A DNA stretch of 64,000 nt from a virus (taxonomy: Duplodnaviria > Caudoviricetes): the IMG/VR virus record IMGVR_UViG_3300042988_001200; one strand, 5' to 3'. The position numbers were made by a program, and so were the translations under genes. Within the stretch, counting starts at the first letter, position 1; every line of letters starts with the position of its first letter. Of the stretch, positions 3,464 to 52,081 are shown piece by piece. The notes below the pieces were generated by a model that saw nothing but the letters and a program-made list of their open reading frames with translations, was not told the DNA's origin and searched no databases.

Positions 3464-3485
3464 ATTAAGTTTAAAGGAGAGGTCT

Positions 3486-3782: not shown

Positions 3783-3810
3783 TAAAGTACCACCCTCATT
3801 CTACAAGGAG

Positions 3811-3845
3811 ATACCCTAGTTATTGACTAGGGTATAACTTTTTAT
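3811..3845. terminator. Intrinsic terminator between convergent genes
   Basis: 10-bp stem ATACCCTAGT-TATTG-ACTAGGGTAT followed by a T run. Confidence 0.75.
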
Positions 3846-3852
3846 TTATATT

Positions 3853-4182
3853 CTAATATTTTAATTGAATATCTACTGGAAAGCCATGAGTACAGTGGTT
3901 ATTATTATATCCTCTAGTTTGGATATAGAATTCATCTTCATCAGTAGGGAAGTTCCTCATTAGATTATCTAGAAGAGTAATAAAGTTTGTACCTCTAGAA
4001 TCAATCCATTTGATTAATACTTGATTCTTATCTGTAGGCTTAATAGTTCCACATTTAGGATGATAAATAGTAAGAGGAAAGTCCCTAGAGTTAATATCAT
4101 TAAGAATCGTATAATCATCCAGTGCTAGAGAGGGACTAATTAAGGATAGAGTGATTAATACGGAAATTGGTAATGCTTTCAT
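3853..4182 (-). CDS. Small exported protein with a Cys pair; paralog of 11970..12287
   Basis: Signal-peptide-like N-terminus (MKALPISVLITLSLISPSLA), plus LTIYHPKC and GYNNNHCTHGFPVDI. Confidence 0.7.
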   Translation of the reverse strand: MKALPISVLITLSLISPSLALDDYTILNDINSRDFPLTIYHPKCGTIKPTDKNQVLIKWIDSRGTNFITLLDNLMRNFPTDEDEFYIQTRGYNNNHCTHGFPVDIQLKY

Positions 4183-16638: not shown

Positions 16639-16853
16639 TTAAGAATTTATTAAGAAGATTAAGGAATCTATATAGACTCTCTAATATAGATATAGACAGA
16701 CACTCTTTAGATTTAACTACTATAAGAAAGATTTATATAGAGACTTTAGATTTAACAGATAAGGATATAGATACATATGAAATTGGTAGTTTGCATGGGT
16801 CATCGAGTATTAAGGACCACTCCTCCTATGATAGGTTTAGTCTTAGAAGGTAG
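16635..16853 (+). CDS. Hypothetical protein
   Basis: 72-aa ORF coupled to the previous gene by ATGA. Confidence 0.5.
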   Translation: MIKNLLRRLRNLYRLSNIDIDRHSLDLTTIRKIYIETLDLTDKDIDTYEIGSLHGSSSIKDHSSYDRFSLRR

Positions 16854-17031
16854 TATTAACTTAATGATTAAGGGTAGACCTGTTTCTTATATAGGGGCTA
16901 AGACGCTAGGAGGTTTAATTCTTACAGGTAGTAAAAGGTTATATATAAAAGGTAGACCAATAGCCCTTCATCTAGGTAAACTAACTAATGGTATAACTTT
17001 AGAGGGATGTTTTAATATAACAAGTGTATGA
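16828..17031 (+). CDS. PAAR-repeat spike tip protein (start probably 16828 rather than 16777)
   Basis: Repeats GLVLEGSINLMIKGRPVSYIG / GLILTGSKRLYIKGRPIALHLG / GITLEGCFNITSV. Confidence 0.8.
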   Translation: MIGLVLEGSINLMIKGRPVSYIGAKTLGGLILTGSKRLYIKGRPIALHLGKLTNGITLEGCFNITSV

Positions 17032-18017
17032 ATTTAGATAATATAAGACAGTTTATTAAACAAGATGATGGTACAGAGTCTATACAAGATATAGAAAAAC
17101 CAGAGTTTCCAGATATATCTAAAGGGTTTAATACTGCTTTTAAAGAGATGCACTACCCTCAAATAGATATGAAATGGGAGTATGGAAGTAATACTTTAGT
17201 AGGAGAAGAAATATGGGAAAGGTCTTTTACCACTCTTGAATTCTTACCTTCTACATCAATTAAAGAGGTTATTCAACCAGATATTGATGAGGAATATAAG
17301 ACCAATTCCTTCTATTTAGTTAGATTCCCCTTTCTAGAATACGAATATAAAGCTACTAAACCCTTCTTTGAATGGGATTTATCTGTTAATAAATACATAC
17401 ATGAAGAGCTGTTCTATCGTAAAAAGAGTAGTTCTATTAGATGGGATAGACCTTTTAATACTTATATAAACCCCAATTCTGATACTGAGATTAAGTATTA
17501 TTTACCTTTAAGCCTCCCTTTTATTAAAGAGTTTGTACCTAATAAAGCTCTAGGATTTCAAGTAAGGTCTGATTCTACCTTTGTAATAGAGAGTAATCAA
17601 ATAGTTTATCCTTCTAATGAATTAATAACCCCAGCTATAGAGTCTCAATATAACATTACTTTCCCTTATATAAGTAATCAAACTTATAGTAATTACATAT
17701 CTATAAGACAGGATGGGGATTACCAGTATGAGGATTTATATCATTTAGTTAATGGTAATGCCTCTCCTACTTATATTGAAATAGACCTTTGGGGCCTTGA
17801 TAAGATACCAAATAGTAAAAGGATCATACCCAATGGAGAAGATTATGAAAGACAAGAGATTCTTATACATCCATCTAATACTCCATTAGAACAAAGGTTA
17901 AAGCCCCCTAATACTAATTTTGATGATAGTGGATTCTGGAATATGGAATCTCCAACTAACTATAAAGATATAGTCAACTATTATGATAGAAAGAGTAAGG
18001 ACTCTAGTTTAAGTTGA
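17028..18017 (+). CDS. Hypothetical protein, probably virion-associated
   Basis: 329-aa ORF coupled by ATGA to the PAAR gene. Confidence 0.7.
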   Translation: MNLDNIRQFIKQDDGTESIQDIEKPEFPDISKGFNTAFKEMHYPQIDMKWEYGSNTLVGEEIWERSFTTLEFLPSTSIKEVIQPDIDEEYKTNSFYLVRFPFLEYEYKATKPFFEWDLSVNKYIHEELFYRKKSSSIRWDRPFNTYINPNSDTEIKYYLPLSLPFIKEFVPNKALGFQVRSDSTFVIESNQIVYPSNELITPAIESQYNITFPYISNQTYSNYISIRQDGDYQYEDLYHLVNGNASPTYIEIDLWGLDKIPNSKRIIPNGEDYERQEILIHPSNTPLEQRLKPPNTNFDDSGFWNMESPTNYKDIVNYYDRKSKDSSLS

Positions 18018-18018
18018 T

Positions 18019-18390
18019 ATGAAAGAGGATAAGATATTAAATTATTTAGTAATGGAGTTAAAAAGGACTCCTAAAGAGGTTCAAAGACTAGGGATTGAAC
18101 TTCTCCTTTTAGAGGATTTAGATAGTATTAGACTACTAAGAAGGCGCTTAAATGATAGATTAAAGACCCCTATTAGTAGAAGTTATCTAAGTGAATTAAA
18201 GATAATGTATTATATGCTTGGCAATTATATTACAGAAGTAGAAGATATTGAAGATACAGCCCCTATAGATATACTAGATTTTATTAAATCCTATGATAAT
18301 CCTTTATCAATTGATGTCCAACCACCTAATGATTTACTCATGTCTAACTCAACAACCTATAGAGCTAGACTCCCTAAAAATACCAAATGA
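18019..18390 (+). CDS. Hypothetical protein
   Basis: 123-aa ORF starting 1 nt after the previous stop. Confidence 0.65.
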   Translation: MKEDKILNYLVMELKRTPKEVQRLGIELLLLEDLDSIRLLRRRLNDRLKTPISRSYLSELKIMYYMLGNYITEVEDIEDTAPIDILDFIKSYDNPLSIDVQPPNDLLMSNSTTYRARLPKNTK

Positions 18391-18541
18391 TATTACTTAT
18401 ATACAACTAGTTATATCTATATTTAATAGAGAGGGGGACTTATTAGATTGTATAAGTGAGTATTTACCTAACTCTATATCTGTAATAAGAAGTAAGGTAA
18501 AGGTGGTTTATAAGATGATAGAGAAGCTAGAACTAGACTAA
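18293..18541 (+). CDS. Possible small hypothetical protein; start uncertain
   Basis: Fills the gap up to the giant ORF, but the only in-frame ATG overlaps the previous gene by about 100 nt. Confidence 0.3.
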   Translation: MIILYQLMSNHLMIYSCLTQQPIELDSLKIPNDITYIQLVISIFNREGDLLDCISEYLPNSISVIRSKVKVVYKMIEKLELD

Positions 18542-21500
18542 ATCCTCATACTCAGAGTTATCTATAGTAAGTTCAACTACAGAGTTGTTAGAGACCATAG
18601 CAAAGAGACCCTCTGGTACAGAGAATTCATTAGATATATAATCCCCTTCAAATATAGACTCACTAACTCTAACCATCTCCTCCCATTGAATAAACCCACC
18701 ATCCTCACTATAGATATCTGGGTCATTAGTATCCTGCTCTGTACTATAAGCCTCTGATATAAGTTGCTCATCTATAGCCTCAATAGCTCTTTCTATAATA
18801 GTAAACTCTGATTGGTTATCTGTTATAGGTTGCATCATACTACCAGCTATACCTGCACCTACCATACCAAATAGTCCTGAGAGTACAGCACTAGTTATAC
18901 TCTGAGCAGCTATCCTTTTACCGCCCATAGCATCATAATCTAGAGCTCCTTTATTACTATTAAATAGATATCTTAGTTTCTCATTAGAGGAAAGTTGACT
19001 AAGTTTAGCTTCTCTATACATCTGAGCTTTATATGAGCTTAGATGAGATAGAGACATCATAGAGTTAATAGCACTCTTCTCTACAAATGGAGCTACTACA
19101 GAAGCACCTAGAGTAAAACCTATTTCTCTAGCTGCTGCTAACCCTATAGCCTCACCTAAATCTCCATCTGTTTCACTAAGAGCCATATTAAGTTTAAAGG
19201 AGCCTCCTATCATAGACTTAGTTAACATAGCTTTAGGGTCTATACTAGTTCCCTTCTTACCGTAGGCTATAGAAAAGATAGTACCCCCCACTATATTACC
19301 TATAGCGTCTGGGTTGATAGTCCCATTAATAACAGCACTACCTATAGTGGTTAGAGCTAGAGGTAATGCTAGTTCCATAAAGTTATTAATGTTATTAAAC
19401 TGTACTGCCTGGGATAGATTATTAAAATTAGGGGTAAGGGACTGGGCGTAAGCATTAGAACTACCTGTATCTACCTTGGTTCTAAGACTGGCTAGTTTAT
19501 GCTGTCTATACTCTGATGTGGCTTTATTATATTGTCTCTCTATCTGTTCTATCTCTGTTATAGAGAGACCATGATTCTCTCCTAATAGAGCTTTAATAAA
19601 ACTCTCTCCCTCTACATAAGAATCTATCTCCTCTTTTTTTCCATACATCTTAGTAAGGAACTCGTTAAGAGCCCTCCCTTTTGCCATAGAGGCAGTGGTC
19701 TCTAACTTATTTGATAGATACTTCTCTAGAGTGGTATTAATAGTATTACCATTTTCATCCTTATACTCCATACTAGAACCAGACTCAATGGCATTAAATA
19801 GAGCTAGTCTAGATTGAAAGTCTTTCTTAGCTTCTTCCTCTGGCATGTTAGCTAGTTTGTATGCAAATGTATCAACTATTTTTCCATTCTCCTTTTTAAT
19901 ACCAGTCATAAGGAGAGGGATATTTCCTTTAAAGTTAGTCTTTAAAAATTCATTAGAGGCAAAGGTATCCCATACAGCAGGTATAGCATGAGAGCTTAGT
20001 TTATTACTTCCAGCTAAATTAAGCATGGTATCCCATATATCAGCTCCTAGTAGTTCAGTATTAGAAGAGTTACCTCCCATTAGGCTAATAGTTTTTTGTC
20101 TAGCTCCTTCCATATCTGTAAATCTACTTAACCCCTCTCCATATTTACCCATCATCTTATCGGTAAATTCTGTAGTAGTATTAATAATCTCTAACATACT
20201 AAGAACCTCTCTAGCTCCTCCTTTATTTGTATCTAGGTTTAAGTAATTAGATTTAATATCCTCTTCATTTTTATTAAAGATTCTAGATAGGATATGAAGG
20301 TTTCTAGAACCCTCTGCTGTATCTGAATTAAATCTTTTATTAATGAAATCTTGTATATCTTCTCCATTTACCTGGTCTCTATCCTTACCTAACTCCCTAC
20401 TTATTATCCCTATATAACCAGAGAAGATGGTGTCTAAGAAGCTACTTTGTTCCCCTTTATCATATCCACTTGCTCCTGTAGTTATGTTATATCTATAGGC
20501 TATAACTAAGGATTCAAGGTCTCTCTTTACCTTTAAAGCTCCAATATCAAAGGCTGATATCTCCTCTTTATTACCAAATGTATTAAGTTCTTGTACTAAT
20601 CTTTCATATTGGGTGTTATCAATACTAAGGTCTGAGGCTAGAATCTGCTCATTCTTAGTAGAAGTAGCCCCTCCCCAGAAGGATGAAACTATTACCCCAT
20701 TCATTAATTTAACTCTTCCATCCTCACTTAAGGTCTCTCTATTTCTCACTAAAGAGCCTAGTTGCATAAATACATCCATACCAACATTAGAGCCAGAGGG
20801 ACCGAACTTACCTGCTTCTCTAGTGATAAGAGCTCTTTGTTTATCTGGATTATCACTTAGGGACTCATATTCACTAGATAGTCTCTCCATATTAGCTATG
20901 AAATCACCTCCAGCTTTAGGTTTAATTCCATCTCTTAATAGTTGGTTTATGCTTTTTATAAAGGCTAGGATTCCCTCTCCTGTATCACTATTTCTCTTAA
21001 TAGAGGATACAAAGTCCTCTTCTTTTATCCCTTGAGAATTATAGAAATCATTATCTCTAAGGAACTGTTTAGTAGATTCCTCTTGAATAATAGAGGATAG
21101 AGCTAGTAAAGGACTCTCTTGATATAAAGTTCCTACAAAGGTGTTATAGGTTTTACCTAGTACATCACCCCCAGCTTTACCCATAATCTTAACCATCATG
21201 TCATAACCAGTAAGAGACATATTAACCCCTGCCCCCTGTCCTAATATAGATTGAAGACTACTTACACTCTTTAATCTAGCTGCATATAAACCACTAGCCC
21301 TAGCTAATATCTCCTCCTCTTGTTCCTTAGATATAGAAGTAGAGTTAGGGGCAATAGATTGTATAGATTTGTACATAAGATCTAATAAATCCTTCTGAGC
21401 CTCCTCTCCCATAAGTAATATACCTAGATAAGTATTTCTATTAGCATTAGTCTCATCTTGGGCTAATACCTTTAATCTATCTTGTAATAAATGAAACCCA

Positions 21501-24500
21501 GAATGGGCATTAGATACAGAAGCTAGATAGCTAAATAAAGACATATTAGGACCATTATTACCAGTAGTAGGTATACCTGTTTGTTGCTTAGATAAAACAG
21601 TAGTCTCTGTATTTATAAAGACATCCTTAAGGATGCTATTCACTTTCTTAATAGAAGAGCCCGTACCCCCTAATCCCCCAAATAGACCTCTACCCTGTTC
21701 TATAAAAGTAAGAGCTACATTCATACTTATATCATTCTGTTGAAAACCTTCTGGTCCTCCTAAGAAATGTTCTACTCTTATACCTAGGTAGTTAGCCACC
21801 TCTTTCTTAACAGCTTTACTAAAAGAGGAACTTTCTAATTGATTTCTCCAGGTGTATAACTTAGCCTTATTATTAGCTATCCTTACTTTATGTTCCTCTA
21901 TCTCACTCTTAAGGATATGAACCCTAGTCTTTTCTTCTTTTATACCTTCTTCTAAAGCCAATCTATCTTCATATGAGGATAAGGGACCTAGACCCCCTAC
22001 TTTATTATCAATGCTAGTATCTAGAGCCCTTATTCTAGCCTCTGTAGTCTTAATCATAATACTGTCACTCTCTATAGACCTTTGTAGGTCCATAAACTGA
22101 CTAAAGATAGTAGTATAGGGGTCCCCATCAAAGTCCCCTATATTCATAGTTAAAAGGGATATGGGGGATAGTAGAGATAATCCTTTATTCCTTTCCTCAT
22201 CGTATTGAACCATAGAATCCTGTCCTATAGCTTGATTAAGTAGAGATATATCTTGTATAACAGTAAGAGCCATTCTTTGTTGTTCACTACCTCCAATGGG
22301 GGGACTTCTAAATCCTAAGACTTCAATACTATCTCTCATGTCTAGATGGTTCATCATTTTTTCCATTAGAGCTATAGAGTTAGATAAAAGACTTTCATTA
22401 AGAGTTAGTTTATATTTATTTACTACTTGTCCTTTAACTACTCTAGACTCTGTAACAGCTAGCTTAGGGTTTATATTTAATAAAGAATATATATTTATAT
22501 CTGGGTCAATAGATTTAAATATCCTTTCTAGAGCTTTAAGGGATGTGTCATTAATAGATTGGGTCTTAACTATCTTTCTAAGTATGGCTAGCCCACTAGA
22601 TAAATCATCTAGTCCCTGTTTATTCTTATTAAGCATATCTATTTGAGATTCTGAGTTCTTAAAGGTATCTCTAGCCCTTCTACTAAACTCTTGACTTACT
22701 GAACTAGAGCTCTTAATATACTCTCCTAGAGCTGTCTCTATAACTATAGCCTTCTCCTTAATATCAGATATACCCCCTAGGTATTTATGCTCATCAAAGG
22801 AGAAACTTTTAGTTTTTTTATAAGTACCTTCTAAAGATTCAATAGTTTGAAGTAATCCAGGTTTATCTTTAGTACCCTCCAAATGTTGATAAATAGAACT
22901 ATATTCCTCTTTAAATCTTTGATTCGATTGAGGTATAATATTCTCGAATCTATATTGAATATAAGCCAATTTCATTTTTATTGGCTCATAGGTAATATTT
23001 TCATTGGCCTCTATATATTTTTGATGTTCTTCTATAGCATTACCTTCTTTATCTTTTCCAAACCATTTAGGAACTTTAATACTATCTATATCCTTATATA
23101 GAGTTTCTAGTTCACCCTCAGATAGAGATGGGTTCTCTAGTTTAAGTTGAGATATAACTAGTTCTTGTTTTCTCTTTTTAAGTTCATCTAATTGATTTTT
23201 AGTATCAGCTTGATAGGTAGTAAATATATTTCTTATAGCTTCTTTAAACAGCTTAATTTCTTTACCTATATTAAGAACTTTATCCTTTAGACTTCTATGT
23301 TGAGAAATTATAGAACTCCTTTGTTCTAGTAGAGTAGTTTTTCTTACTTCTATTAGTTTATTAATAGAGAGGGTTATAGATTCTTCTAACTCTCTTAATT
23401 GATTAAGTTCAGAGTGATACTCTATAGAGTTTCCAGGATGAATTTGCTTTTTAAACTCTTGTATCTCACTTCTTATATTGGCTCTATTAATCTCTAAAGA
23501 TTCTATTAGTCTAGTAAACTCTCTTTTTTCAATAGATTTATCTATTCCTATATCTCTAAGAAATAAAGAAGCGGCTTTCTCTTCTCTTATAATTATTTCT
23601 TTATACTTGGATATAGACTTAGATAAACCCTGGATAGAGGATTTAGTATCTACTTCACCTAATCTACTTTGTATTTCTTTTATAGCTTTACCATTAATCT
23701 CATCATATTTAGATTTAAGTTCCTTTTCTCTAGACATTAGATAAGTAATAACAGGGGAGTACCTATCTAAACTAGATAATCCTTCTATAGAATTTATCCT
23801 AGTAGATAAGTGTTCTATTTCTCCATCTAACTTTTTAATTTGAAGCTCTAATGGACTTTCATATTCACTAATCTCTTGAGTAAGAGCTAATTGCTTTCTT
23901 TCTAATTTAGCTTTATACTCTGTTAAATCAGCCCATTCACTATCGGCTATCTCTTCATAAGGAGCTATCTTTAAGAAATAAAGTCTATTTTCTAATTCCC
24001 TCTCTTCTAATAAAAGTCTAGAAGAGTCTTGTTTATACTCTTTAACTTTGTATAAATGATTAAGTTTATTTTTTACTTCTGTATATTCTTTATCTATTTT
24101 GTTAATATATTCTGTACTATGAATTCCTAAGTGTATATTTCTCTTAATCTTAGATAAGATTTCTAATCTAGATTTATAACTAGAAATATCTTCTTCTAGA
24201 ATTCTATAGCCATTGGAACTTGGATTTAAACCCATCCAAGGAGGAGTTTCCAAAGCACTTCTATCATATATTTTTATACTACTTTTAATTTTATTTATAT
24301 ATTTTAATCTACTTTCAATTTCTCTAGAGTATTGGTATATAAGTCTTTTAGTAGTACCTAGCCAAGTTTCTCCTTCTAATTCACTTATAGTTCTATTAAC
24401 ATATTTATGTTCTTCTTCAAGTTCTTGTTGTATAGATTCTAGTTTCTTTATATCTCTTTCTCTAATTTCCTCGTCCCTTTTTTTAGCTTCTGGTGAGGAT

Positions 24501-27500
24501 AGAAACTCTATAGTAGCATTTCTATATTTCATTTCGAGTTCACTTAATTCTAGTTGTTTACTCTCTAAGGAATTATATCTACTACCATAATCATCTAGAT
24601 AAACACTCTTAGAAGTAGAGTCTATACTCTGTTGAATACTAGTTCTAGCTCTATTTAATCTATTTAACTCATTCTCTAAATCACTTATAGAGTTATTACT
24701 ATACTCATTTCTACTTTTATCTAGTTCTTTCCTTAATACTATAGAGGTAGAATCACTAGGTTTAATGTCTGGAAATAATTCTCTACCTACTAAACTATTC
24801 TGTTCTAGAGTTATATTGGCTCTCTTTATATATAGTTCTTGTTCTACTTTTCTAATTCTATCTTCTATTTGTTGTAGATTATTACCATGAATTAGTAAAT
24901 CTTCATTATTAGGTCTAACCATTATAGTTCCACTTTTACCCTCTTCTTTAGCCTTTTGTATCTGTTCTATAAGGTTTATTTGTTCTTCTCTTAATTTAAT
25001 TAATCTATTCTTATCATCTCTAATAGAATTTAACTCCTCACTTATTCCAATTAAGGAGGAGATTCTATCTCTTTCTAGTTCTAATATCTTAACCTTACTC
25101 TTTATATAACCATCTTCTAAATCAATATCCTTAGAGTTCTTTATTAAATCTAGTTCATATTCCAATTTAGATAAGTTATCTCTAGTGGGTCTCATCCCCT
25201 TAACCTTACTTTCTTGTAGCTTTAATCTATAGATAATACTATCTGAACTATCGATTTCTTCTATAGTTCTTTCTATATAATGAATCTCTTTATTAACATC
25301 TGATAGGTTACTACTATATATTCCTCTAATAAAAGAGGCTATTCTCTTAACTGTTTTATTATCTGGAACTATCTTACTTAATGATTTACCTTCTTCTACT
25401 ATCTTAGTTAATCTAGTTCTTTCACTATTTAATTCTTTAATCCTTTCATTAATAAGGGTTTTATCTATACCCTCACTAGCTCTTTTAAGACTTAATAGCT
25501 CTAATCTCTGTTTATTTAAACTCTCAACTTGGCTTTCTATATCAACTAAATAGCTATTTAGATAATCCAAACTACTAGATATATCAAAGCTACCACTCTT
25601 TTCTAGAGCCTTAAAACTATTTAATATACTAGATAACTCCTCTCTTTTATTTATTAAAGAAGGGAGACTGTTTATTTGATTAATCTTTCTAGATAATGAA
25701 TCTGGGTCATTACCACTAGAATTAATTCTTTGTAATTCATTTAAATCTCTTAACTCCCTATTTATCTCTCTAAAGGTAGGAGCATATGCTTCAATATGGC
25801 TCTGAACTCTCTTATAATATTCACTGAACAATACAGATACTGGTATAGAATCCACCCCAGTAGCTACTTGTAAAACCCTTCTTATATTACCTAGTTCCAA
25901 TTGATTAGCTTTACTTAATCTCTCTTTAAATATAGAACTAGCCTCATTTACTAGTTTTAATACTTCTTCTGGGAGATTATAATAAAGGTCTTCTTGTATA
26001 GATGGAAATATGGAATAATCAACTAGATTACTTTGAAATATAGAGAAGAATATATTTAAATCCATACCTGCTGGACCACTAACTCTATTATTAATGTCTA
26101 GAGTCATCTTATATAAGAACTCGGAAGGGATATTATATCTGTATTCATTATTTAAGAAAGGCTTAGTTGTCTTCTCATAAACTATACCTTTATTCGTCTT
26201 AATCCTATTTATTTCATCTTCTAATACCTCTAGTTCTATAAGAAAGATTCCCTCTTTATATACTTTAGAACCCTCACTTAATCTTTTCCATTTATTGAAT
26301 TTAGTCTTATCTCTTTTATATGCCTTATTTTCCTCTATATCTCCTTCCACTAATCCGCTTCTTTTTATCCTTTCAGCCTCTAGTTTAGCTAGTTCTACAG
26401 CTAAAGAATCTCCCTGATTCTTACCTATTTGTATATTAGATAGGAGTTCAAGTCTAGATAAAAGGCTATTAGCCTGTCTATTAAGGGGTTCTATAACAGC
26501 AGTATCTTCTTGGTTTATACTCCCTAACTTACCAATAAGAGAGTCCACTTCTTTCTTTATAGTTAGAACTTCATCAATATACGACATACCTAAAGGAGAA
26601 AGTCCCCCTCTAACTGCTAATAAAGCTGCTCTAATAACATTCTGTTCCTTATAAGAGCTACTAGAATTACCTATATTCTCTAGTAAACTAACTAATTCAT
26701 AACGTTCAGGACTAGCACTAGTATATCTATTAAGAGCCTCTTTAGCTAATAGAATACTACCATTAGGTATTAACCAAGAAGCTGCTGATGAGGTTACAGC
26801 TCCACTATGTCTAGTTTTAAATCCAATAGCAGCTTGAGCTCTAGTACCAGCACTAGCCTCTGCCATAAGATTAACTATACCCTGGTCTCCAAAAGCATAG
26901 GAGTAGAACTTCTTAAGTAGTATAAGTTCTTCTTTATCTAGTTCAATAACACCTGTACCTTCTTCCTTAGCTCTAACAATCTTATCTCTAACATTAGACA
27001 TAGCAGTACCAGGAGCAAAGGCACTAGCTAGAAATATGGTTCTACTTACTATCTCATCAATATAAGAACCATAGGCATCACCTAATCCTTTAAGTTCAGC
27101 TCCACTCATAAGATAACTATAATACTTCTGACTATAGTCCAGCTCTAGTCTTACCTTACCCCCTATGTCATTACTACTATCCTCTGACATATATATCTGA
27201 GGAAGACTAAAGGCAAAGCTCTTATAGTTTAACTGGTCTAGTATAGGGGATACAGAACCAGCTCCAAAGGGTTTATCACTATGTAATTGATAGTACCTAC
27301 TTATATCTAATAACCTTCTAGAACTTATATTATCTAATAAAGTAAGAGCCCCAGTTATATCAAATCCAGACCCCATCTTATCTTTCATATCTACAATAAT
27401 CCCTCTTATAGCCTCATTCTCTGATGGGTTATAGGTCATTAATTGATTAATCTTTTCTATGGTATCTATCCTACTCTCAGGTGTAAGGTTATTACTATCT

Positions 27501-34903: not shown

Positions 34904-35344
34904 ATGAACACATTAAGTAATGTAGCTTTAGGTCCTTTTGAGTTACCCTCTGGAAAGGTAATTACGTTTAGAACTTTATCTTTTAAAGAAAGAAGAGAAT
35001 TGCTTTCTAAGTGGCAGAAGAATGATGGTAGAACCCAAGGTTATCTTCTAGAAGAATATTTTATGGCTGCTGCTTTAGTAACAGAGGATAATCAAGGAGT
35101 TATTGATGAGTATCAATCTTCAGATGGTTATATTGCTAGACTTGACCATTGGTCAATGAAAGATACCTCTTATTATATGGAAGCCTTTATTATCATTAAT
35201 GGTGTAGGTGAGAGAGAAAGACCTAATATTGAGGCAGAGGTAAAAAAAATACTTGGGGTTACTCCAGGTACACCCTTACCCCCTCCCCCACCCGTTTCTC
35301 AGGAGAGTACCTCCTCTCTACCCAAAGGGCTAAAGATTATGTAA
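34904..35344 (+). CDS. Tail assembly chaperone (gpG-like)
   Basis: FELPSGKVITFRTLSFKERREL at the N-terminus, and a slippery site linking it to the next ORF. Confidence 0.78.
   Translation: MNTLSNVALGPFELPSGKVITFRTLSFKERRELLSKWQKNDGRTQGYLLEEYFMAAALVTEDNQGVIDEYQSSDGYIARLDHWSMKDTSYYMEAFIIINGVGERERPNIEAEVKKILGVTPGTPLPPPPPVSQESTSSLPKGLKIM
35242..35248 (+). other. -1 programmed ribosomal frameshift site, A-AAA-AAA
   Basis: The 0 frame reads GTA AAA AAA ATA. The -1 frame is closed by TGA at 35230-35232, then open from the slip site through 35431 to 35874. Confidence 0.85.
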
Positions 35345-35430: not shown

Positions 35431-35874
35431 ATGCCTATAGCTCCACTATTATATATAGGGTTAAAAGAAAGATATCTTATTAATATACCTATAGATACAT
35501 TAAGTAGAGCTATAGATAGTCTAAGATTTATTCCTCCTTCCTATGCCGGTTCTTTATACTATGACCCTAATATCCCTTATTACTTTAGTTTATTAGTTGA
35601 TGCTATTTCCACTAATATAGTAGAGCAGACTCAACTAGATAACTGGATAAGAATATGTCAAGTATGTCCTCTACCCTTATTTCAAGATATAGCTTATTTA
35701 GAGTTAGATATCTTTTGGAGTACAGCTATAGCTAAGGCGGTAGATAGTTATGTTAGAGAGCAGAATAAGAAACAGGATGAAGTAATGAAGAATCTAGAGA
35801 AGAAGTTAATTAAAGAGGATATACCTACAAGTAACTTTAATCACATACCCATGCCCAAGAATTATGGAATGTAA
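35431..35874 (+). CDS. C-terminal part of the frameshifted chaperone (gpT-like; fusion product 34904..35874)
   Basis: Lies in the -1 frame relative to 34904 and is continuous with KKNTWGYSRY...STLFPTPL upstream of its ATG. Confidence 0.75.
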   Translation: MPIAPLLYIGLKERYLINIPIDTLSRAIDSLRFIPPSYAGSLYYDPNIPYYFSLLVDAISTNIVEQTQLDNWIRICQVCPLPLFQDIAYLELDIFWSTAIAKAVDSYVREQNKKQDEVMKNLEKKLIKEDIPTSNFNHIPMPKNYGM

Positions 35875-35880
35875 ATAAAT

Positions 35881-37257
35881 ATGGATAGAACTCCAGTAGA
35901 GAATAAGACAACACAACTAGAGAGTAGCCCTCCTAGTATAGATTTAATCCCTTCTTATAAAAGGAAACCCCCAGTAATAAGACAGATGGGTAGAACCACT
36001 TCTTATATCTCTACTGGAGATGACCTCTTTACCTCTTGTGTTAGACCTAGTATCCAACAACTATCCTTATGGGATTCAGCTAGAAGGAAAGAACCTATTC
36101 TATTTGATGGGTTACAAAAGATGGTAGGAGCTGTTAGAGCTAAGTATGCTGGATGTAGTCATCCAGACCCTATTATTAATACTTTTGTTAATAGAGTTCT
36201 AGAGAATAGAATACTTGAATGGGTAGGCTCTATAACTAATACTATGCTATGGAGTGGGTTCTGTGTAGGAGAGATAGTCCATGAATATAAGACTGGTATT
36301 AATGGGGAGAAGCAGGTATGGATAAAGGACTTTTTTACTTACCACCCTATAGAGCCTAGATTTATATTAAATAAACAGGGACTTCTTACTCATGGCGAGT
36401 TAATGGAAGAAAGTTCTTTATCTACAGGTATATGGGTTCCAGCTCCGGAGTATTTATCATCTAAAAGAGCTATAAATCATTCTTTTACAGGTAGTCATGT
36501 TAGATTACCTAAGACTAAAGTTTTTCATATAGCTTTTAATTCAGAAGGTAATAATCCTTATGGAATGTCTCAATTAGAAGCTGCTACTAAATATCATATA
36601 TATAAAGAAACCTTCTTAGAGATGGAGGCAGCCGCTCTTGATAGATATGGGACTCCCCTTATTTACTGTACTGTACCCTTACAAAAGACTAAGGAATCAG
36701 TGCAAGAGCCTGATGGTTCTATAAGGGACCTTTATTACCATGAAGTAATAAGTAATCATCTAGCTGATTTGAGGTCACAGCAGACCATAGTTTTATCTTA
36801 TGCTGATAAAGATAACCCACCTAAGTTAGAGGCTCTTACTACAGGTAATAACTTTAGTGATACGTTTAATATGGGTATAGAACTCTGTGATAGTAATATG
36901 ATGATAGCTCTAGGTATACCTAATCTAATACTAAAAGATAATAATCAGGGGTTAGGGACTGGTGGTGCAGCAGAGAGACAAATGGAGGCATTCCATTTAT
37001 TTATTACAGATATATTTAATACAGTAACTAATAAGATAATAGAACAGGTTATTACTCCTTTAATTCTATGGAACTTTGATATAGATAAGCATCCATTAGC
37101 TACTCAACCTGTTACCTTTCTATCTAAACCTATTAGATGGTCAGAGAATCAGGTTCTGGTTAATGTTATTAAAACACTAACAGAACTTAATTATATAAAC
37201 CCAGAGGACCCTAAACATAAGGCTTGGGTACTAGATATGTTTAATATACCTAAATAA
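35881..37257 (+). CDS. Portal protein (Mu gp29/DUF935-like)
   Basis: GFCVGEIV, FNSEGNNPYGMSQLEAATKYHIYK...LDRYGTP, IELCDSNMMIALG; it lies upstream of the protease and capsid genes. Confidence 0.85.
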   Translation: MDRTPVENKTTQLESSPPSIDLIPSYKRKPPVIRQMGRTTSYISTGDDLFTSCVRPSIQQLSLWDSARRKEPILFDGLQKMVGAVRAKYAGCSHPDPIINTFVNRVLENRILEWVGSITNTMLWSGFCVGEIVHEYKTGINGEKQVWIKDFFTYHPIEPRFILNKQGLLTHGELMEESSLSTGIWVPAPEYLSSKRAINHSFTGSHVRLPKTKVFHIAFNSEGNNPYGMSQLEAATKYHIYKETFLEMEAAALDRYGTPLIYCTVPLQKTKESVQEPDGSIRDLYYHEVISNHLADLRSQQTIVLSYADKDNPPKLEALTTGNNFSDTFNMGIELCDSNMMIALGIPNLILKDNNQGLGTGGAAERQMEAFHLFITDIFNTVTNKIIEQVITPLILWNFDIDKHPLATQPVTFLSKPIRWSENQVLVNVIKTLTELNYINPEDPKHKAWVLDMFNIPK

Positions 37258-45429: not shown

Positions 45430-46160
45430 ATTCTTATCCAATAACTACAGCAGTACCTTCCTTACCTTTCTTATGTAGATATATATTCAGACTATTATCT
45501 ACACATCCCCTAATAATAAATCCACCTATATATCACCCTGTAACAGGAGAAAGAGTTTATATAAAGGGATATAAGTTATTTAATGGTATAGAGACTAATC
45601 TAGGTTTATATTGTTCTATATTTCCTCACTCTACTCCTACTGATGGTATAAGTCTACCTAAACCAGCAGATACATCTACTTCTGTTCTATTTGAGCCCCA
45701 AGGTAATGGGTATGATTTAGCAGTATACCATATAGCTCTTAAACTTCACTATAATTTTTCTATATTAGGTAATAAGGAGACTAATAATGACCTTATAGCT
45801 GTACCCTTAGATGCTGCTATACACCCATCTCAGACTCCATATGCTAGAGAGGGGTCTAGAGAGTTAGAACTATACTACAGTCCAAGTCTATACATTATTG
45901 GTGAGTATTTAGAGTTAATACGATTAGCTATTTTAGATAAAGAACATACATTTTCTATGCCATCTGTTTTTAGAACATCAGATATACCAAGAAATATACA
46001 GGTTCTTTATTTTAATTTAAAGACTCCACCTTGGGAGAAGGATAAGGCTTTATATTTCCATGAAGGAGAAATACTTATTCGTATTGATTCAATCCTATCT
46101 AAAGAATGGAAGAGTCAATTTGAAGTTCCCACTGCTTCCTTCCAAGTCTCCGTTTTATAA
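45423..46160 (+). CDS. Probable tail terminator or neck protein
   Basis: Located immediately before the sheath gene; beta-rich. Confidence 0.5.
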   Translation: MLDSYPITTAVPSLPFLCRYIFRLLSTHPLIINPPIYHPVTGERVYIKGYKLFNGIETNLGLYCSIFPHSTPTDGISLPKPADTSTSVLFEPQGNGYDLAVYHIALKLHYNFSILGNKETNNDLIAVPLDAAIHPSQTPYAREGSRELELYYSPSLYIIGEYLELIRLAILDKEHTFSMPSVFRTSDIPRNIQVLYFNLKTPPWEKDKALYFHEGEILIRIDSILSKEWKSQFEVPTASFQVSVL

Positions 46161-46179
46161 TCTTTATTTAATATTATTT

Positions 46180-49161
46180 ATGTCCATTCCATATATTAAA
46201 TTCCATGAAGTAAATGATAGTACCTCACCTATATCTCCTAATGCTAGAAATAGAATTCTTATAGCTGGAGAGTTCTCTAGAGGACCAGCTAATGAGGTAA
46301 GGTTTATAGCTAACTATAAGGACTTCTCTGATAGATATGGTTCTGATAATGCTATAGGTTCAACAGCCTTCCAAGCTGCATGGGACCAAGGGGCTAGAGA
46401 CTTTGCTCTATTAAGAGTTCTAGGAGCAGGTTCTCCAGCTAAGGGTTATATAGACTTTAATGGTTATGCCTCTAAGTCTAATGATATGGTTCTAGCTATG
46501 AGATTTATAGGGGACCCTGTTATTAGAAGTCTTAGAAAGATACCTACCTCTATTACTACAACTGGTAACTATGTAGGCTCTGTCTCTGGTAGATACTGGT
46601 TTAGAGTTGATGAGAAAGATGATAAAGGTTATTACAATGTAAAATACGTATTTGTACCTATTGGGATAGAGGGTTATATAAACTGGTATCCACAGAGTAG
46701 AACAGACAAGAATTGGAGTGTAGACCCAACCTTTCCCTTTTCAACTATAGGTGCAGCTTTAATTCAAGAGACATCTAATCTATCCTCTATATCATCTTCT
46801 CTTCTACAGTTAGTAGGAGCTGAGCCTATAGTGTTCTCTAACACTTGCTTAGATTTAGTACAACCAGGAATGACTTGTGGACAGGCTCAGGTTAATGGTT
46901 GGAAAGTTGTTATTGAAGTAGGGGATATGAGGTGGATATGGCATACTGATAGTGCAGGAGCTACTAAGTTACTAGATAAGAATAACTCTGGATATACAGG
47001 TAATATCCCTGTTATAGTTCCAGGTACTAATGGTGTTGCTTCCTTTAACACTATGGATGGAGTCACCCTAACCTCTACCCAAACAGGACAGGATATACCT
47101 GCCTCTGGTCTATTTGCTAATTCTACTACTGCTGGAGCTATTAACCCATATATCATTCCAGTTACTGAATCCTTTATATTCCATGAAGAGGATACTGGGG
47201 CTCCTATATCTGTGGATAATGGGGTGTTTGTTAGATTTGATAATGCTTCTACACAACAGTCTATTCAATTAATGAATGGGGATATGTGGACTGTTAGAGT
47301 TAACTTTGATAAGTTTGATATTCCTATTTATGATGGAGCAACCCCATCTCAAGTTGTTACTTCCATAATGGAGGTTACTCAAGGTAGAGAGCCTATTGGG
47401 TTAGTAGAGAGAAATGAACTAGATAATGGTCTTATATTTGGTTTAGATGAGACTTTCTTTAATGGTTCTATAGGTAATAACTATTCATATTATGTAGAAC
47501 TAGCTGAACCAGATGGAGAGGTAATCACCCAAGCCTCCTTCTATAGTGGTGAGTTATATATTCAAGTTCCTATCAGATATGGCATATATATCAAACCAGG
47601 GGCTGTTGTTTCTTTAGTAGAGAGTGGGGGTATCTATGGGGTAGTTAATGTCTCTAACCCTTTTGACCCTAATGCTAATAAACCTATTAGTAGAAACATC
47701 CTTAGTCCTAATACTAGAGTTACTAAGGTAGATGCTCCTATCTATGGTGGGGGTCTAGCTACTATATGGTTAGATAAACCCGTGATATCAGACTTTGATA
47801 GTATAGGTCTATTCCATTTTGCTAATCCTAATGGTCTATCTATCTCTACCTATACTAGCTATATGGCTAAGTTTATGCAAGGTGGACAGAATGGTCCTAC
47901 TAGAGCTTCTAGAGACTTATATACAATGGAGGGACTTCCCCTTGTATCTCTATTTGCTATATCAGAGGGAGCGTGGGGTAATAACTTAAGAATCTCTTTA
48001 TATCCCTTTGATAACAAGTCTTTTAGATTAATGATAGTAGACCTTAATAAGAATAACTTTGACCCTCCTTTAGCAGATGAGATGTTTAATGTCTCATTCG
48101 ATAGGATAGATGAGCAGGGTGGACTTATAGACCTTTCTACATCTAAGTTTATAAGAGGGGTATTTCTACCTAAGTATATTAACAGAAACTTTAATGTTTC
48201 ATTATTAAGAAAGAGTCCTATGAGGTTAGCTGCACCTGATGATACAGCTACTGACCCTTCAGACTTTGCACATCCTGAGATGTTTGGTCCTAGAGTTCTA
48301 TCTACTATTACTCTTGAAGGAGGCTTTGATGGTCCCCCACCTACTGATGCTGACTATATAAGAGCTATAGATTTATCTAAATCTAGTCCTGTTAATATGC
48401 TAGTTCTACCAGGTATATATAGTCCTGTAGTTAAACAAAGGATGATAGCTGCTGCTAATGGTGCTGATGAGTTTGAAGGTCTACGTATAGCTATACTTAA
48501 TGCTCCTCCTAGATTAACTCCAGAAGCAGCTAGAGTAGAATCTATAGGTTATGACTCTAAGAGAGCAGTTCTATTAGCTGGATGGTCTACTTATGGTGGA
48601 GCTCTTAATGCTCAGAGATATGGCCTATCTCCAGATGCTCCCTATGCTGGGAAATTAGCTTCTATACCTATTTATGTAGGACCCCATGCTCGTTCTAGTA
48701 GTGGACCTGTATTTGGATTAGCTGAGGTAGATACTCAACCATACACTTCTAAAGCTCAATTAGAGATGTACCATGATGCAAGGATGGAGGTTATTATGTT
48801 AGACCCCATATCCCTATCCTTTAACTTCCTTAATGGTAGAACTACTAGTATGCTAGCTGCATGGGAGAAGGTCTCTTTTACTAGAGTAGTAGATATGATT
48901 CGTATGGACCTAGCTAGAAGTCTTAATCAATATAAGAGTGAACCTAACACTCCTAGATTAAGACAGAGGATAGCTTCTTCTATTGATGCTTATCTAGGAA
49001 CTCTATTTAGAAATGGGGTTATAGCTCTATCTACTACAGCTAGTGTTAATGCTAATCCTCAGAATCCAGCAGGTATACAAATTAGCTTCTCTGTCGTACC
49101 TGTGTACTCAGCGGATTATATAGATGTTTATATTAGTAGAGCTGATTTAGGAGTTTCATAA
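46180..49161 (+). CDS. Tail sheath protein with a large insertion (start probably 46180, MSIPYIKF)
   Basis: IAGEFSRGPANEVRFI..Y.DF..RYG, LFAISEGAWGNNLRI, LEGGFDG, PDAPYAGKLA, VSFTRVVDMIR, PNTPRLRQRIASSIDAYLGTLFRNGVI, PVYSADYI. Confidence 0.92.
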   Translation: MSIPYIKFHEVNDSTSPISPNARNRILIAGEFSRGPANEVRFIANYKDFSDRYGSDNAIGSTAFQAAWDQGARDFALLRVLGAGSPAKGYIDFNGYASKSNDMVLAMRFIGDPVIRSLRKIPTSITTTGNYVGSVSGRYWFRVDEKDDKGYYNVKYVFVPIGIEGYINWYPQSRTDKNWSVDPTFPFSTIGAALIQETSNLSSISSSLLQLVGAEPIVFSNTCLDLVQPGMTCGQAQVNGWKVVIEVGDMRWIWHTDSAGATKLLDKNNSGYTGNIPVIVPGTNGVASFNTMDGVTLTSTQTGQDIPASGLFANSTTAGAINPYIIPVTESFIFHEEDTGAPISVDNGVFVRFDNASTQQSIQLMNGDMWTVRVNFDKFDIPIYDGATPSQVVTSIMEVTQGREPIGLVERNELDNGLIFGLDETFFNGSIGNNYSYYVELAEPDGEVITQASFYSGELYIQVPIRYGIYIKPGAVVSLVESGGIYGVVNVSNPFDPNANKPISRNILSPNTRVTKVDAPIYGGGLATIWLDKPVISDFDSIGLFHFANPNGLSISTYTSYMAKFMQGGQNGPTRASRDLYTMEGLPLVSLFAISEGAWGNNLRISLYPFDNKSFRLMIVDLNKNNFDPPLADEMFNVSFDRIDEQGGLIDLSTSKFIRGVFLPKYINRNFNVSLLRKSPMRLAAPDDTATDPSDFAHPEMFGPRVLSTITLEGGFDGPPPTDADYIRAIDLSKSSPVNMLVLPGIYSPVVKQRMIAAANGADEFEGLRIAILNAPPRLTPEAARVESIGYDSKRAVLLAGWSTYGGALNAQRYGLSPDAPYAGKLASIPIYVGPHARSSSGPVFGLAEVDTQPYTSKAQLEMYHDARMEVIMLDPISLSFNFLNGRTTSMLAAWEKVSFTRVVDMIRMDLARSLNQYKSEPNTPRLRQRIASSIDAYLGTLFRNGVIALSTTASVNANPQNPAGIQISFSVVPVYSADYIDVYISRADLGVS

Positions 49162-49193: not shown

Positions 49194-50009
49194 ATGGCTT
49201 GGAAAGATACTTATTCACAATATACAGATTCACTTTATTGCTCTCCAGTTAATAATACGGGTCTAGACCCATTACAGGGCTTTGACTTCTTTGTATGGGT
49301 ACAGGATGTATGTACTGGTAAAGTAGCATGGTTTGGTCTATTTCAATCTCTTACATTAAGTATTAGAGATGCTACAGAGACATATCTAGAGTTGGGTCAG
49401 AGATTACCCATTCACCTTAATGGTGAAATTCAGATAGCCTGGGTATTAGAACAAGGTCTAGTAGATATGAACTTTGTAGAAAGAGCCTTTGGTACTAGTT
49501 GTCTTAGAAGAGACATGTATATTACCAGAGGTCCTAGATTTCAAATATCCTTTGATGCCAATGCTCAAGAATTAGAGAACTTTAATACAGGAAATGTGGT
49601 TGGTAAATTAGATAGAGGAAATACAGGGGGTCAAGGAACAGGTGGTACAGGATTAATTTCTAGACAAGGCTCAGATGAATACTTTAGTTTTCCAGAGGCT
49701 GCCTATGCTACTAGAAATGGGGGACCTGATGCTGGTAAGAAAGGTCCTACAGCGGTAGGTAGATATGATGTACTTAGATGTAAACTAGATTCTATATCCA
49801 TTGGTATTATGCCCGGAAGAAGAGTAGTAGCTGTTAGATGGGAAGGTGTAGCTGAAGGTATATGCTTTGTACCAACTAGTGTTCAGACATTTAAAACTGA
49901 TAGAGCCAGATTGGGTAATGCTTCTTCTGGTAACTTTGTTAATGGTATTGACTTTGCTAATGGAGCTCCTGGGGCTCTTACTACTATGACTGCTGGAGCA
50001 AGTCAATAA
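49194..50009 (+). CDS. Tail tube protein
   Basis: Follows the sheath gene; DPLQGFDFFVWV...GLFQSL...ETYLELG...GEIQIAWVLEQG. Confidence 0.8.
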   Translation: MAWKDTYSQYTDSLYCSPVNNTGLDPLQGFDFFVWVQDVCTGKVAWFGLFQSLTLSIRDATETYLELGQRLPIHLNGEIQIAWVLEQGLVDMNFVERAFGTSCLRRDMYITRGPRFQISFDANAQELENFNTGNVVGKLDRGNTGGQGTGGTGLISRQGSDEYFSFPEAAYATRNGGPDAGKKGPTAVGRYDVLRCKLDSISIGIMPGRRVVAVRWEGVAEGICFVPTSVQTFKTDRARLGNASSGNFVNGIDFANGAPGALTTMTAGASQ

Positions 50010-50074: not shown

Positions 50075-52081
50075 ATGAAACAATATAATCCAAATTGTTC
50101 AGTACCTGCTGCTGCCATTACATATGCTGGTGGGTTAACAGGTAATCAACCTATACTCTTTACCACTCAATACGGGCATGTAGATACAGGAGTTGGTCCT
50201 AGTGGTACAAAGGAGGATAAGTATGCAGATAGACCCCTAGAATGGGCTATTAACTATATAAAGGTTACTATAGTAAGGGACTGGAGTAGTTCTATAGCTA
50301 ATATCATGTTAACTTCTAGTATCCCCTCTAACCTATGTGATTGTCCTCCATTACCTAATCTATCTAAGATAAGAGGTGGTAACTACCCTTATCTAACAGT
50401 AGAGGATGAAATACGTATATACATGGGTTTTATAGGGGCAGTAGGTCAACCTATAACGGCTGATATGTTAGATGAGATACCAGTAGACCTATGTCCAGAG
50501 GGAGTGGAATGTGGGATACCTAGTGGTGAATCCTTTAAGCAAGACCCTAATAAACCCTTATGTCCTGTATTCTGGGGCTTTATAGATAACATCTCAGTAT
50601 CCGCTGATATTAAGTCTGGATATAGAGTTCTTATTCAATGTAGAGATAGAACCAGGGTCTTTAGTGATACTAAGATAATCTCTATCCCAGCTCTCTCAGG
50701 TAGAAGTAGAAACCTAACAGATAAAGGGGTTAAGACAGGTTTAGCTGATGGTAGAAGAGAGGACATTCTTATACAAGTAGCTAGAGCTGCTACTGGTAGA
50801 CTATTTGACTCTACTGGTAATGTTCTATATCAATCTACTAGTAAGGATGGTAAATCAGATACATGTTGGAAACCTGTAATAGGGGGTTCTGATTTATTAG
50901 AGGAGAATAAGTATCAGCCAGGGTGGGGGGAGTCAGGAGTTCAGTACAAGCCTTCAGAGTTAGGGGTTATGAGGTATACAGGGTTTGAGGGGGATGTAGT
51001 AAGTGGGTTAACTAGAGTATCTCCACCAGAGGACCCAGCTTTATGGATAAGAGAGGCTATGTTTAAGATTATGCTTCCTTATTCAGAGCCTAGGTTCCAT
51101 ATGTGGGTACAGAGACCTCCCTTAGTAGCAGTGGCAGGAGCTGCTGTATTTCAGATAAAGGAAAAAACCCCCATAGAAGTAATGACCTTTCTAGCTAATT
51201 CAGAGGAGAGACCTACTGACTTCTATGCTTCTCATGTTAATGGGGATTTTATATTTGCACCTAGGATGTTAGATACTAGTGGATTCTATGACCCTAATAG
51301 ATTCTATAGAACCTATTTCTATAATAGTTACCCCAGGACTTTATCTAGTAATCCCCCCTCCCCTAATCAGATGATAATAAGCATGAGGTCTGTAACTTCA
51401 TCTCTAGCAGCCTTTAATAGATATGTTCTTATAGATGCTACTACAGAAGGAGCTTCTAATGCTTTCCTAGATAAGCTAGTTCTATCAATGGAAACTACCC
51501 CTTGGTCTTTAGATGATAGAGATGTTAAACCTCCTTGTAGAGTTCAGATTATCTATGATGGTAATTTAACAGCTTATGGTAATGAGGACTATCAACAAGC
51601 GGGTGCAGCTATTACTGTAGCTCTATCTCATGCTAGAACTTGGTCTAAGGAGTTACAGGGTATACAAATAACTATAATGGGAGACCCCACTCTATATCCT
51701 AATGAAGCTATAAGAGTTTATAATACAGTTCTCCATGATTATGCTACTAGCTTTAATCCTGGTACAGTAGAGAGTCAACAAGTAGCTGTAGATAATTTAG
51801 CTAGAGTAGAGAGCTTGTTTAATGATGAGGAGTTTGTTAAGAAGGTTATGACTCTTTCCTCTAATAAGAAATATAAACTAGATAACTTTGATAGTCAACA
51901 GGCTAAGACCTTAAAGGATGAGGCTAATGCCCTTTTTAATAGTCATATGATTCAATCTAATAAAGACCCAGATAACCTTATTCTACCTGTCTATAAGATA
52001 AGGTCTGTACAACATACTCTATCAGTAACAGGTAACTCCCCAGGCTTCTTTACTAAATTAGAATGTATAGGGGATTATTGA
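50075..52081 (+). CDS. Baseplate hub / tail protein (gp27/gp44-like)
   Basis: VFWGFIDNIS...VLIQCRDRTRVF, IQITIMGDPTLYPNEAIRV, YKIRSVQHTL...GFFTKL. Confidence 0.7.
   Translation: MKQYNPNCSVPAAAITYAGGLTGNQPILFTTQYGHVDTGVGPSGTKEDKYADRPLEWAINYIKVTIVRDWSSSIANIMLTSSIPSNLCDCPPLPNLSKIRGGNYPYLTVEDEIRIYMGFIGAVGQPITADMLDEIPVDLCPEGVECGIPSGESFKQDPNKPLCPVFWGFIDNISVSADIKSGYRVLIQCRDRTRVFSDTKIISIPALSGRSRNLTDKGVKTGLADGRREDILIQVARAATGRLFDSTGNVLYQSTSKDGKSDTCWKPVIGGSDLLEENKYQPGWGESGVQYKPSELGVMRYTGFEGDVVSGLTRVSPPEDPALWIREAMFKIMLPYSEPRFHMWVQRPPLVAVAGAAVFQIKEKTPIEVMTFLANSEERPTDFYASHVNGDFIFAPRMLDTSGFYDPNRFYRTYFYNSYPRTLSSNPPSPNQMIISMRSVTSSLAAFNRYVLIDATTEGASNAFLDKLVLSMETTPWSLDDRDVKPPCRVQIIYDGNLTAYGNEDYQQAGAAITVALSHARTWSKELQGIQITIMGDPTLYPNEAIRVYNTVLHDYATSFNPGTVESQQVAVDNLARVESLFNDEEFVKKVMTLSSNKKYKLDNFDSQQAKTLKDEANALFNSHMIQSNKDPDNLILPVYKIRSVQHTLSVTGNSPGFFTKLECIGDY

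Follow-up and report, generated by a model that had tools for sequence, protein, structure and literature searches.

We analysed a 64,000-nucleotide (nt) stretch of viral DNA (hereafter the window; IMG/VR record IMGVR_UViG_3300042988_001200, Duplodnaviria; Caudoviricetes), in which the giant open reading frame (ORF) P0001 (18533..34651, minus strand) encodes a protein of 5,372 amino acids (aa). The source phage is an uncultured, contractile-tailed cyanophage, with a sheath 41-42% identical to the sheaths of the Microcystis phage Ma-LMM01 (Fukuivirus) and of the Microcoleus phage My-WqHQDG, and P0001 is homologous to gp080 of Ma-LMM01 and to the giant protein of My-WqHQDG. The reading that we prefer, and that we put forward tentatively, is that the giant protein is an ejected virion polymerase with a membrane-insertion module at its C-terminus. 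The polymerase would be synthesized together with the proteins of the virion, travel in the particle and leave it through the tail, along with the DNA or before it. Its C-terminal helices would insert into or anchor at the host cytoplasmic membrane, and the enzyme, thus held at the DNA entry site, would transcribe the first genes. The giant protein would in this way do the membrane part of the job of a tape-measure or ejection protein, while another protein would set tail length.

P0001 was examined with a Kyte-Doolittle scan using 19-aa windows and a threshold of ≥1.35. In all 5,372 residues, windows reaching this threshold occurred only at 5090-5112 (peak 1.55), 5168-5190 (1.37) and 5247-5273 (1.62). 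The three corresponding segments span nt 18833-19372 of the minus strand. Segment 1 (19316..19372, minus strand; residues 5094-5112; Kyte-Doolittle 1.55) contains the invariant Gly5104 and Gly5110. Segment 2 (19082..19147, minus strand; residues 5169-5190; 1.37) is hydrophobic to amphipathic and carries a conserved Arg-Glu pair, of which Glu5176 is invariant, and segment 3 (18833..18898, minus strand; residues 5252-5273; 1.62) contains the invariant Gly5262. Together they make up a conserved C-terminal hydrophobic module (18827..19399, minus strand; residues ~5085-5275), which is followed by a weakly conserved acidic tail (18536..18832, minus strand; residues 5274-5372). Compared with the whole of P0001, the module is enriched in Gly (11.6% vs. 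6.8%), Ala (12.1% vs. 4.9%) and Met (5.8% vs. 1.9%). Composition-preserving shuffles of the protein produced about nine scattered hydrophobic windows, more than the real sequence has, and 18% of the shuffles had three of them within 200 aa; the clustering of the three segments is therefore not significant by itself. We count the module as real because it is conserved across homologues. The scan, the Gly/Ala enrichment and this conservation confirm the three Gly/Ala-rich hydrophobic segments at about residues 5094-5273 that the original prediction for this DNA had singled out.

The three segments and the acidic tail also end gp080, the My-WqHQDG giant protein and 13 metagenomic giant proteins (15-33% identity). 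These 15 diverged, full-length homologues measure from at least 2,622 aa to 4,838 aa. A phmmer search with residues 5040-5372 against 1.84 billion representative proteins retrieved 22 proteins, the full-length ones being 3,586-4,838 aa long with the module at their extreme C-terminus, and found the module in no protein of conventional tape-measure size. In the module-bearing homologues the D[FYL]DGD motif always lies 780-1,005 residues upstream of segment 1, so that the spacing is nearly constant. Gly5104, Gly5110, Gly5122, Glu5176, Asp5240 and Gly5262 are invariant in the alignment of the module. Judged by a Kyte-Doolittle criterion of 1.6, segments 1 and 3 of P0001 attain or come close to the level of transmembrane helices, and they reach 1.8-1.95 in homologues. 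The AlphaFold2 model of residues 4880-5372 was helical throughout with no confident globular fold (predicted local distance difference test, pLDDT, 41.5), which is compatible with a metastable or membrane-inserting region. We picture the module as two near-transmembrane helices and an amphipathic helix with a buried Arg-Glu pair, followed by the acidic tail. A PDB search with the module returned coiled-coil or chance matches only, and its profile matched nothing in Ma-LMM01 gp120, in the gp098-type proteins or in other large virion proteins. The family-wide conservation and fixed placement of this module are new.

The polymerase part of P0001 was recognized by its DFDGD motif (22121..22135, minus strand; residues 4173-4177). 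The motif does not vary within the family, and it stands 921 residues upstream of segment 1. The longer form G-D-[FYL]-D-G-D is unchanged in all 13 giant-family members compared, with a conserved R-x-x-P...G motif about 58 aa upstream. With this invariant DxDGD metal-binding loop inside a conserved block, P0001 is a putative two-barrel (beta/beta-prime-like) RNA polymerase. Almost the whole of gp080 can be aligned to conserved blocks of P0001, namely 175-1195, 1280-2235, 2381-2901 and the module at the C-terminus. A charge-rich, Gly/Pro-poor helical insert (22544..26542, minus strand; residues ~2704-4036) separates the two conserved polymerase blocks of P0001. It is the only part whose length varies strongly, and it comprises ~1,330 aa in P0001, ~790 aa in My-WqHQDG and ~146 aa in Ma-LMM01. 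It accounts for ~1,190 of the 1,810 aa by which P0001 exceeds gp080. Being inserted, this ~1,330-residue stretch should make a long helical hairpin jutting from the enzyme.

Pfam and PHROG scans of all three thirds of P0001 found no tape-measure family, the sole match being its own PHROG 31006; this is weak evidence, as many tape measures have no family match either. No peptidase domain was found in P0001 by the same scans, and the M23 domain encoded in the window belongs to a separate gene (55223-56443). A tblastn search with P0001 residues 3700-5372 against 50,697 phage records gave matches only in Microcystis and Microcoleus phages, and searching the phage collection by blastn with the 3′ end of this gene gave none. 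By eye we also noticed two HxK...GSxN-like motifs at residues ~400-775 (window ~32330-33900, minus strand), which would be PLD-type.

The neighbourhood of the giant gene links it to tail genes. Close to its 3′ end lies a gene for a PAAR-motif spike-tip protein (16777..17031, plus strand; 84 aa; PF05488, 29.9 bits against a cutoff of 27), followed by three conserved genes (17028..18541, plus strand; 329, 123 and 82 aa) that are convergent on the giant gene. The PAAR block stands beside the giant gene in all seven lineages with a readable flank (the window, Ma-LMM01, L006, L009, L040, L041 and L042). In the relatives it comprises the PAAR gene, an adjacent gene of ~300 aa and two or three small genes before the giant gene; in Ma-LMM01 these are gp075-gp079. 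In L040 the block is upstream of the giant gene, and PAAR block, giant gene, chaperone and portal are co-directional and read as one operon. Giant gene, chaperone and portal are likewise co-directional in My-WqHQDG, where the record begins inside the giant gene and the upstream flank is cut off. This linkage of the giant gene to the PAAR block is new. The products of the three partner genes beside PAAR could serve the giant protein as adaptors or as chaperones.

On the other side of P0001, 253 nt from its start (34651) and on the opposite strand, lies a G-like tail assembly chaperone ORF (34904..35344, plus strand; 146 aa). A T-like extension ORF (35431..35874, plus strand) is in the -1 frame relative to it. 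The slippery heptamer A AAA AAA (35242..35248, plus strand) sits where the -1 frame, opening just upstream, reads into the second ORF, which would give a 323-aa GT-like fusion. The slip site is A AAA AAG in Ma-LMM01, and in all six lineages with DNA read the -1 frame is open from a conserved ...EAKKLMG... to the end of the second ORF. The assignment as a G/GT-like chaperone is well supported by this conserved -1 frameshift, and both the frameshift and the distance of about 250 nt agree with what had been claimed for this locus. Pfam recognized no chaperone family in either ORF. The nearest named Atlas clusters were Phage_TAC_1, 2, 5, 7, 13 and 15, with scores of 0.89-0.91 and template modelling (TM) scores of 0.39-0.53, which serve as leads only. 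A model of the complex between the C-terminal 344 residues of the giant protein and the G-like chaperone scored 0.00, which is evidence neither way.

The chaperone pair always has the portal directly downstream; it opens the virion operon and does not stand between a tube gene and a tape-measure gene. In the window the Mu-type portal follows at 35881..37257 (plus strand). The chaperone-portal pair adjoins the giant gene in eight of nine lineages. Giant gene and chaperone are divergent in six lineages, the giant gene is upstream in two, and in one (L009) they are 8.5 kb apart: there the chaperone pair has kept its place directly upstream of the portal, 8.5 kb and ~13 genes away from the giant gene and the PAAR block beside it. 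The L009 arrangement, which is a new observation, indicates that the primary link of the chaperone is with the portal, and that of the giant gene with the PAAR block.

In Ma-LMM01 the gp080 gene is silent at 1 h; its expression goes up at 3-6 h, and it shares class B5 and this rise with the baseplate genes (supplement of PMC5780444). Both chaperone ORFs are among the most abundant late transcripts of the Ma-LMM01 transcriptome (log2 13.2-13.6 at 6 h). Late expression with virion genes, together with spike-tip, chaperone and portal neighbours, is best read as that of a packaged enzyme and not of an early polymerase. As to where the protein would wait in the particle, the PAAR and chaperone neighbours lean to the tail, and the precedents of N4, phiKZ and AR9 lean to the head.

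To judge the ruler role that the original prediction had assigned to the giant protein, we compared protein length with tail length. The tail of Ma-LMM01 is, we assume, 209 nm long. In the cultured relative MaMV-DH01 the tail is 230-260 nm (PMC9927357). The homologous protein there, ORF102, has 3,562 aa, which at 1.5 Å per residue would correspond to 534 nm; a role as length ruler is thus disfavoured, the comparison being one made on this cultured relative. There is also no spare segment of ~1,400 residues in gp080 that could act as a ruler, and the sole long charge-rich helical stretch in the family is the insert between the polymerase blocks, which varies from ~146 to ~1,330 aa. We conclude that the giant protein is unlikely to set tail length, an argument that is new for this family. 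What stands of the proposed tape measure is a plausible tape-measure-like role at the membrane, to which the PAAR block lends weight; the length-ruler part is disfavoured by the MaMV-DH01 tail and by the lack of a ruler segment.

The closest known counterpart is gp96 of the Thermus siphovirus P23-45, a protein of 5,002 aa with DFDGD at residues 779-783 that is annotated as a tape measure (Chaban et al. 2024, PMC10770324), so that the precedent invoked for a virion RNA polymerase fused to a tape measure does exist. P0001 shares with gp96 its giant size (5,372 vs. 5,002 aa), the DFDGD motif and hydrophobic membrane segments, and both proteins probably deliver polymerase with the DNA. In gp96 the remaining ~4,200 residues are the tape of an extraordinarily long non-contractile tail, whereas relatives of the window phage have tails of 230-260 nm. 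Moreover, gp96 has a metallopeptidase and an N-terminal motif, while P0001 has no peptidase, its motif is at residue 4173 of 5,372, and polymerase blocks fill most of the chain. The P0001 gene also lies outside the tail module, and BLAST found no similarity to gp96. With DFDGD in the C-terminal quarter, no peptidase and no similarity to Thermus phages, P0001 does not look like a contractile-tail version of the P23-45 design. Its true homologues are Ma-LMM01 gp080, MaMV-DH01 ORF102 and My-WqHQDG WOL31285 (PHROG 31006), all annotated as hypothetical, which share with it the conserved blocks, DFDGD, the three-helix module and the PAAR block, chaperone pair and portal as neighbours.

Giant ejected virion RNA polymerases are also found in podoviruses, namely N4 gp50 and crAss-like gp66. 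Coupling of polymerase and membrane has been proposed for gp96 and suggested for the N4 and crAss-like polymerases (PMC10770324). Like P0001, gp50 and gp66 are very large single chains in which the polymerase is flanked by packaging or ejection regions; they differ in belonging to other polymerase folds or lineages (T7-like in N4) and to phages with short tails, in having no reported C-terminal three-helix module and in sharing no sequence similarity with P0001. The canonical tape measures lambda gpH, T4 gp29, P2 gpT and T5 pb2 resemble P0001 in their Gly-rich hydrophobic C-terminal helices and in the G/GT-type frameshifting chaperone nearby. They differ in being mostly one long helical ruler of ~1.5 Å per residue, whose gene has the chaperone on one side and the hub or distal tail genes on the other, and none has a polymerase core spanning most of the chain as in P0001. 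A virion polymerase joined to a delivery or membrane module is an already known kind, of which P0001 would be a variant.

Weighed against these data, it seems unlikely to us that the giant polymerase is itself a contractile-tail tape measure, that is, a protein that is held by the chaperone, lies inside the lumen of the tube, keeps its C-terminus at the hub and spike, sets tail length and then exits first as a membrane channel, the route put forward for P23-45 gp96. Several observations speak for it: no tape measure lies between tube and hub in the window or in 22 related loci, the frameshifting G/GT-like chaperone adjoins the giant gene in eight of nine lineages and the PAAR spike-tip genes are on its other side, hydrophobic helices at the C-terminus are a usual trait of tape measures, a set of four tape-measure hidden Markov models matches nothing in the records of two relatives (one of them partial), and P23-45 provides a precedent (PMC10770324). 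The length of the MaMV-DH01 tail (230-260 nm vs. the 534 nm predicted from 3,562 aa) and the absence of a free helical segment of ruler length in gp080 are at odds with such a role, as is the placing of the variable insert inside the polymerase, with a constant distance from DFDGD to the module. A folded two-barrel polymerase, besides, cannot fit into a tube lumen of ~4 nm. The giant gene is outside the tail module, and in L009 the chaperone stays with the portal, 8.5 kb away; the protein has no peptidase domain and no similarity to gp96, and two other ruler candidates exist. We are equally doubtful of the broader form of this idea, in which a conventional tape measure has been replaced throughout the Ma-LMM01-like phages by the giant polymerase, loaded by the relocated chaperone and docked through its C-terminal helices under the PAAR-tipped spike, as lumen protein and injected enzyme in one; the outcome would be a counterpart of P23-45 gp96 in myoviruses, though of another architecture.

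The same data bear on where an ejected protein would be stored and on whether it is a virion protein at all. It could be a head-packaged ejection protein like N4 gp50, with the module acting as a capsid-targeting or portal/core-docking signal whose helices pack protein against protein; we consider this a less probable alternative. The 3,500-aa virion polymerase of N4 needs its C-terminal domain for encapsidation, the head is where phiKZ-type and AR9-type myoviruses hold their virion polymerases, the giant gene is next to portal and head genes, and the conserved charges in segment 2 and a model of packed helices with no clear membrane topology would suit it. The PAAR and chaperone neighbours, in turn, point to the tail, the Kyte-Doolittle values of 1.8-1.95 for segments 1 and 3 in homologues are high for soluble packing helices, and tblastn with the C-terminal third against the phage collection gave no similarity to N4-like proteins. 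It is quite improbable, in our judgement, that the protein is a non-virion polymerase that works inside the infected cell, where its C-terminus would tie it to the cytoplasmic or thylakoid membrane. Hydrophobic helices at the C-terminus, resembling a tail anchor, are typical of membrane proteins inserted post-translationally, and the packaging of the giant protein is read from indirect evidence. On the other hand, expression coincides with that of the structural genes and is absent at 1 h; the gene stands among virion genes, forms one operon with them in L040 and lies co-directionally upstream of chaperone and portal in My-WqHQDG.

Several points also weigh against the ejected, membrane-inserting polymerase that we favour. 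PDB sequence and profile searches with both polymerase halves and with a 13-sequence profile of the DFDGD block retrieved no polymerase and gave coiled-coil or chance matches only, so what speaks for the polymerase assignment here is the invariant motif. Its presence in the particle, and with it ejection and membrane insertion, are steps that we infer. The hydrophobicity of the segments (1.37-1.62) is borderline for transmembrane helices, and with conserved charges in segment 2 the helices could be the core of a soluble helical domain. PF10145, PF20155, PF06791 and TIGR01760 match nothing in the complete Ma-LMM01 and partial My-WqHQDG records; this leaves the ruler slot formally unfilled, with the giant gene as the nearest large neighbour of the chaperone. 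The alternative ruler, the 1,041-aa protein P0002, has no family assignment, and its AlphaFold2 model (pLDDT 30.8) consists of helices and lengthy coils, with no fold.

Among the cultured viruses of bloom-forming Microcystis, phages of Ma-LMM01 type are the main ones. They are reported to depend on the host polymerase, and we know of no annotated tape measure in them. If true, delivery of a polymerase through the contractile tail and its anchoring at the entry site would change the view of how these phages start infection. The result is a further example of an emerging pattern, in which polymerases are coupled to proteins of the tail lumen or of ejection. It also raises a concrete and testable question, namely which of the three candidates in this lineage is the one that sets tail length. 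Should the module be no more than a packaging signal, the result reduces to a modest annotation of an orphan domain.

The tail genes of the window are part of a plus-strand virion operon which runs from the G-like and T-like genes through the Mu-type portal, protease, major capsid protein and four further genes to sheath, tube, a 668-aa protein and spike. The giant gene is outside its sheath-tube-hub block. The tail sheath is encoded at 46060..49161 (plus strand). Homology begins 40 codons into this ORF, which overlaps the preceding gene by 100 nt, and the true start is probably the Met at ~46180. The tail tube follows (49194..50009, plus strand; phrog_34837 family), its role being read from the position after the sheath and from conservation. 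Directly after the tube lies the 668-aa baseplate hub of gpD / Mu gp44 type (50075..52081, plus strand), with an Atlas feature score of 0.97-0.98 and a structural TM of 0.75-0.82 from the subject side. The spike protein (52114..54750, plus strand) combines a gp5/V OB domain, a VanY peptidase and a beta-lactamase-fold domain. In the window, as in each of the 22 related loci showing both genes, the hub comes directly after the tube, with no tape measure between the two. This agrees with the earlier statement that none follows the tube or the chaperone, the hub coming after the one and the portal after the chaperone pair. In a distant relative (L036, 10025-17035) the tube is followed by two short tube paralogues, a transposase and an enlarged 1,176-aa hub, with no tape measure there.

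A rival ruler candidate, which is new, is P0002 (58087..61212, plus strand), encoded in the baseplate module, where it has the spike/peptidoglycan-hydrolase genes on one side and the gp25-like and J-like wedge genes on the other. Ahead of it are two conserved helical ORFs (56446-57015, 189 aa, and 56990-58090, 366 aa; plus strand) that overlap, the second being in the +1 frame. P0002 is syntenic with Ma-LMM01 gp098 (1,177 aa), MaMV-DH01 ORF120 (1,160 aa) and an 870-aa protein of My-WqHQDG. BLAST and a genome search detected no significant similarity between P0002 and the syntenic Ma-LMM01 and My-WqHQDG proteins, and its orthology is drawn from position and from two short shared motifs seen by eye, a Gly-rich hydrophobic stretch in the middle of the protein and then a P-x-x-P-x-L-P motif. 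P0002 is rapidly diverging: a word-based homologue search found one relative, an Atlas search found nothing, and a PDB search gave coiled-coil or chance matches only. At 1.5-2.2 Å per residue, 1,160 residues would correspond to 174-255 nm, near the measured tail of 230-260 nm. The more distant L035 has, in this order, tube, hub, spike, a 1,025-aa protein with strong Gly/Ala hydrophobic helices, gp25 and J.

Another large protein, Ma-LMM01 gp120 (2,898 aa), has 13 or more strong Gly/Ala hydrophobic segments spread over its chain. Neither P0002 nor gp120 matches a known tape-measure family. We regard P0002 as the best tape-measure candidate within the window, and a giant protein of gp120 type as the alternative. 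An M23 peptidase in gp120, suspected because PHROG 6700 has the same length, was discarded, as Pfam finds none. Ma-LMM01 gp064 (1,673 aa) was also considered as a ruler and dropped, given its DADGD motif and its position beside early genes. This gene (L001, 32129-37150) has no homologue in the window, and it adjoins the early cluster gp054-gp063 and a 42-bp repeat array. Possibly gp064 is a second polymerase, one outside the virion; such a pair would be a parallel to P23-45 and its two-polymerase scheme.

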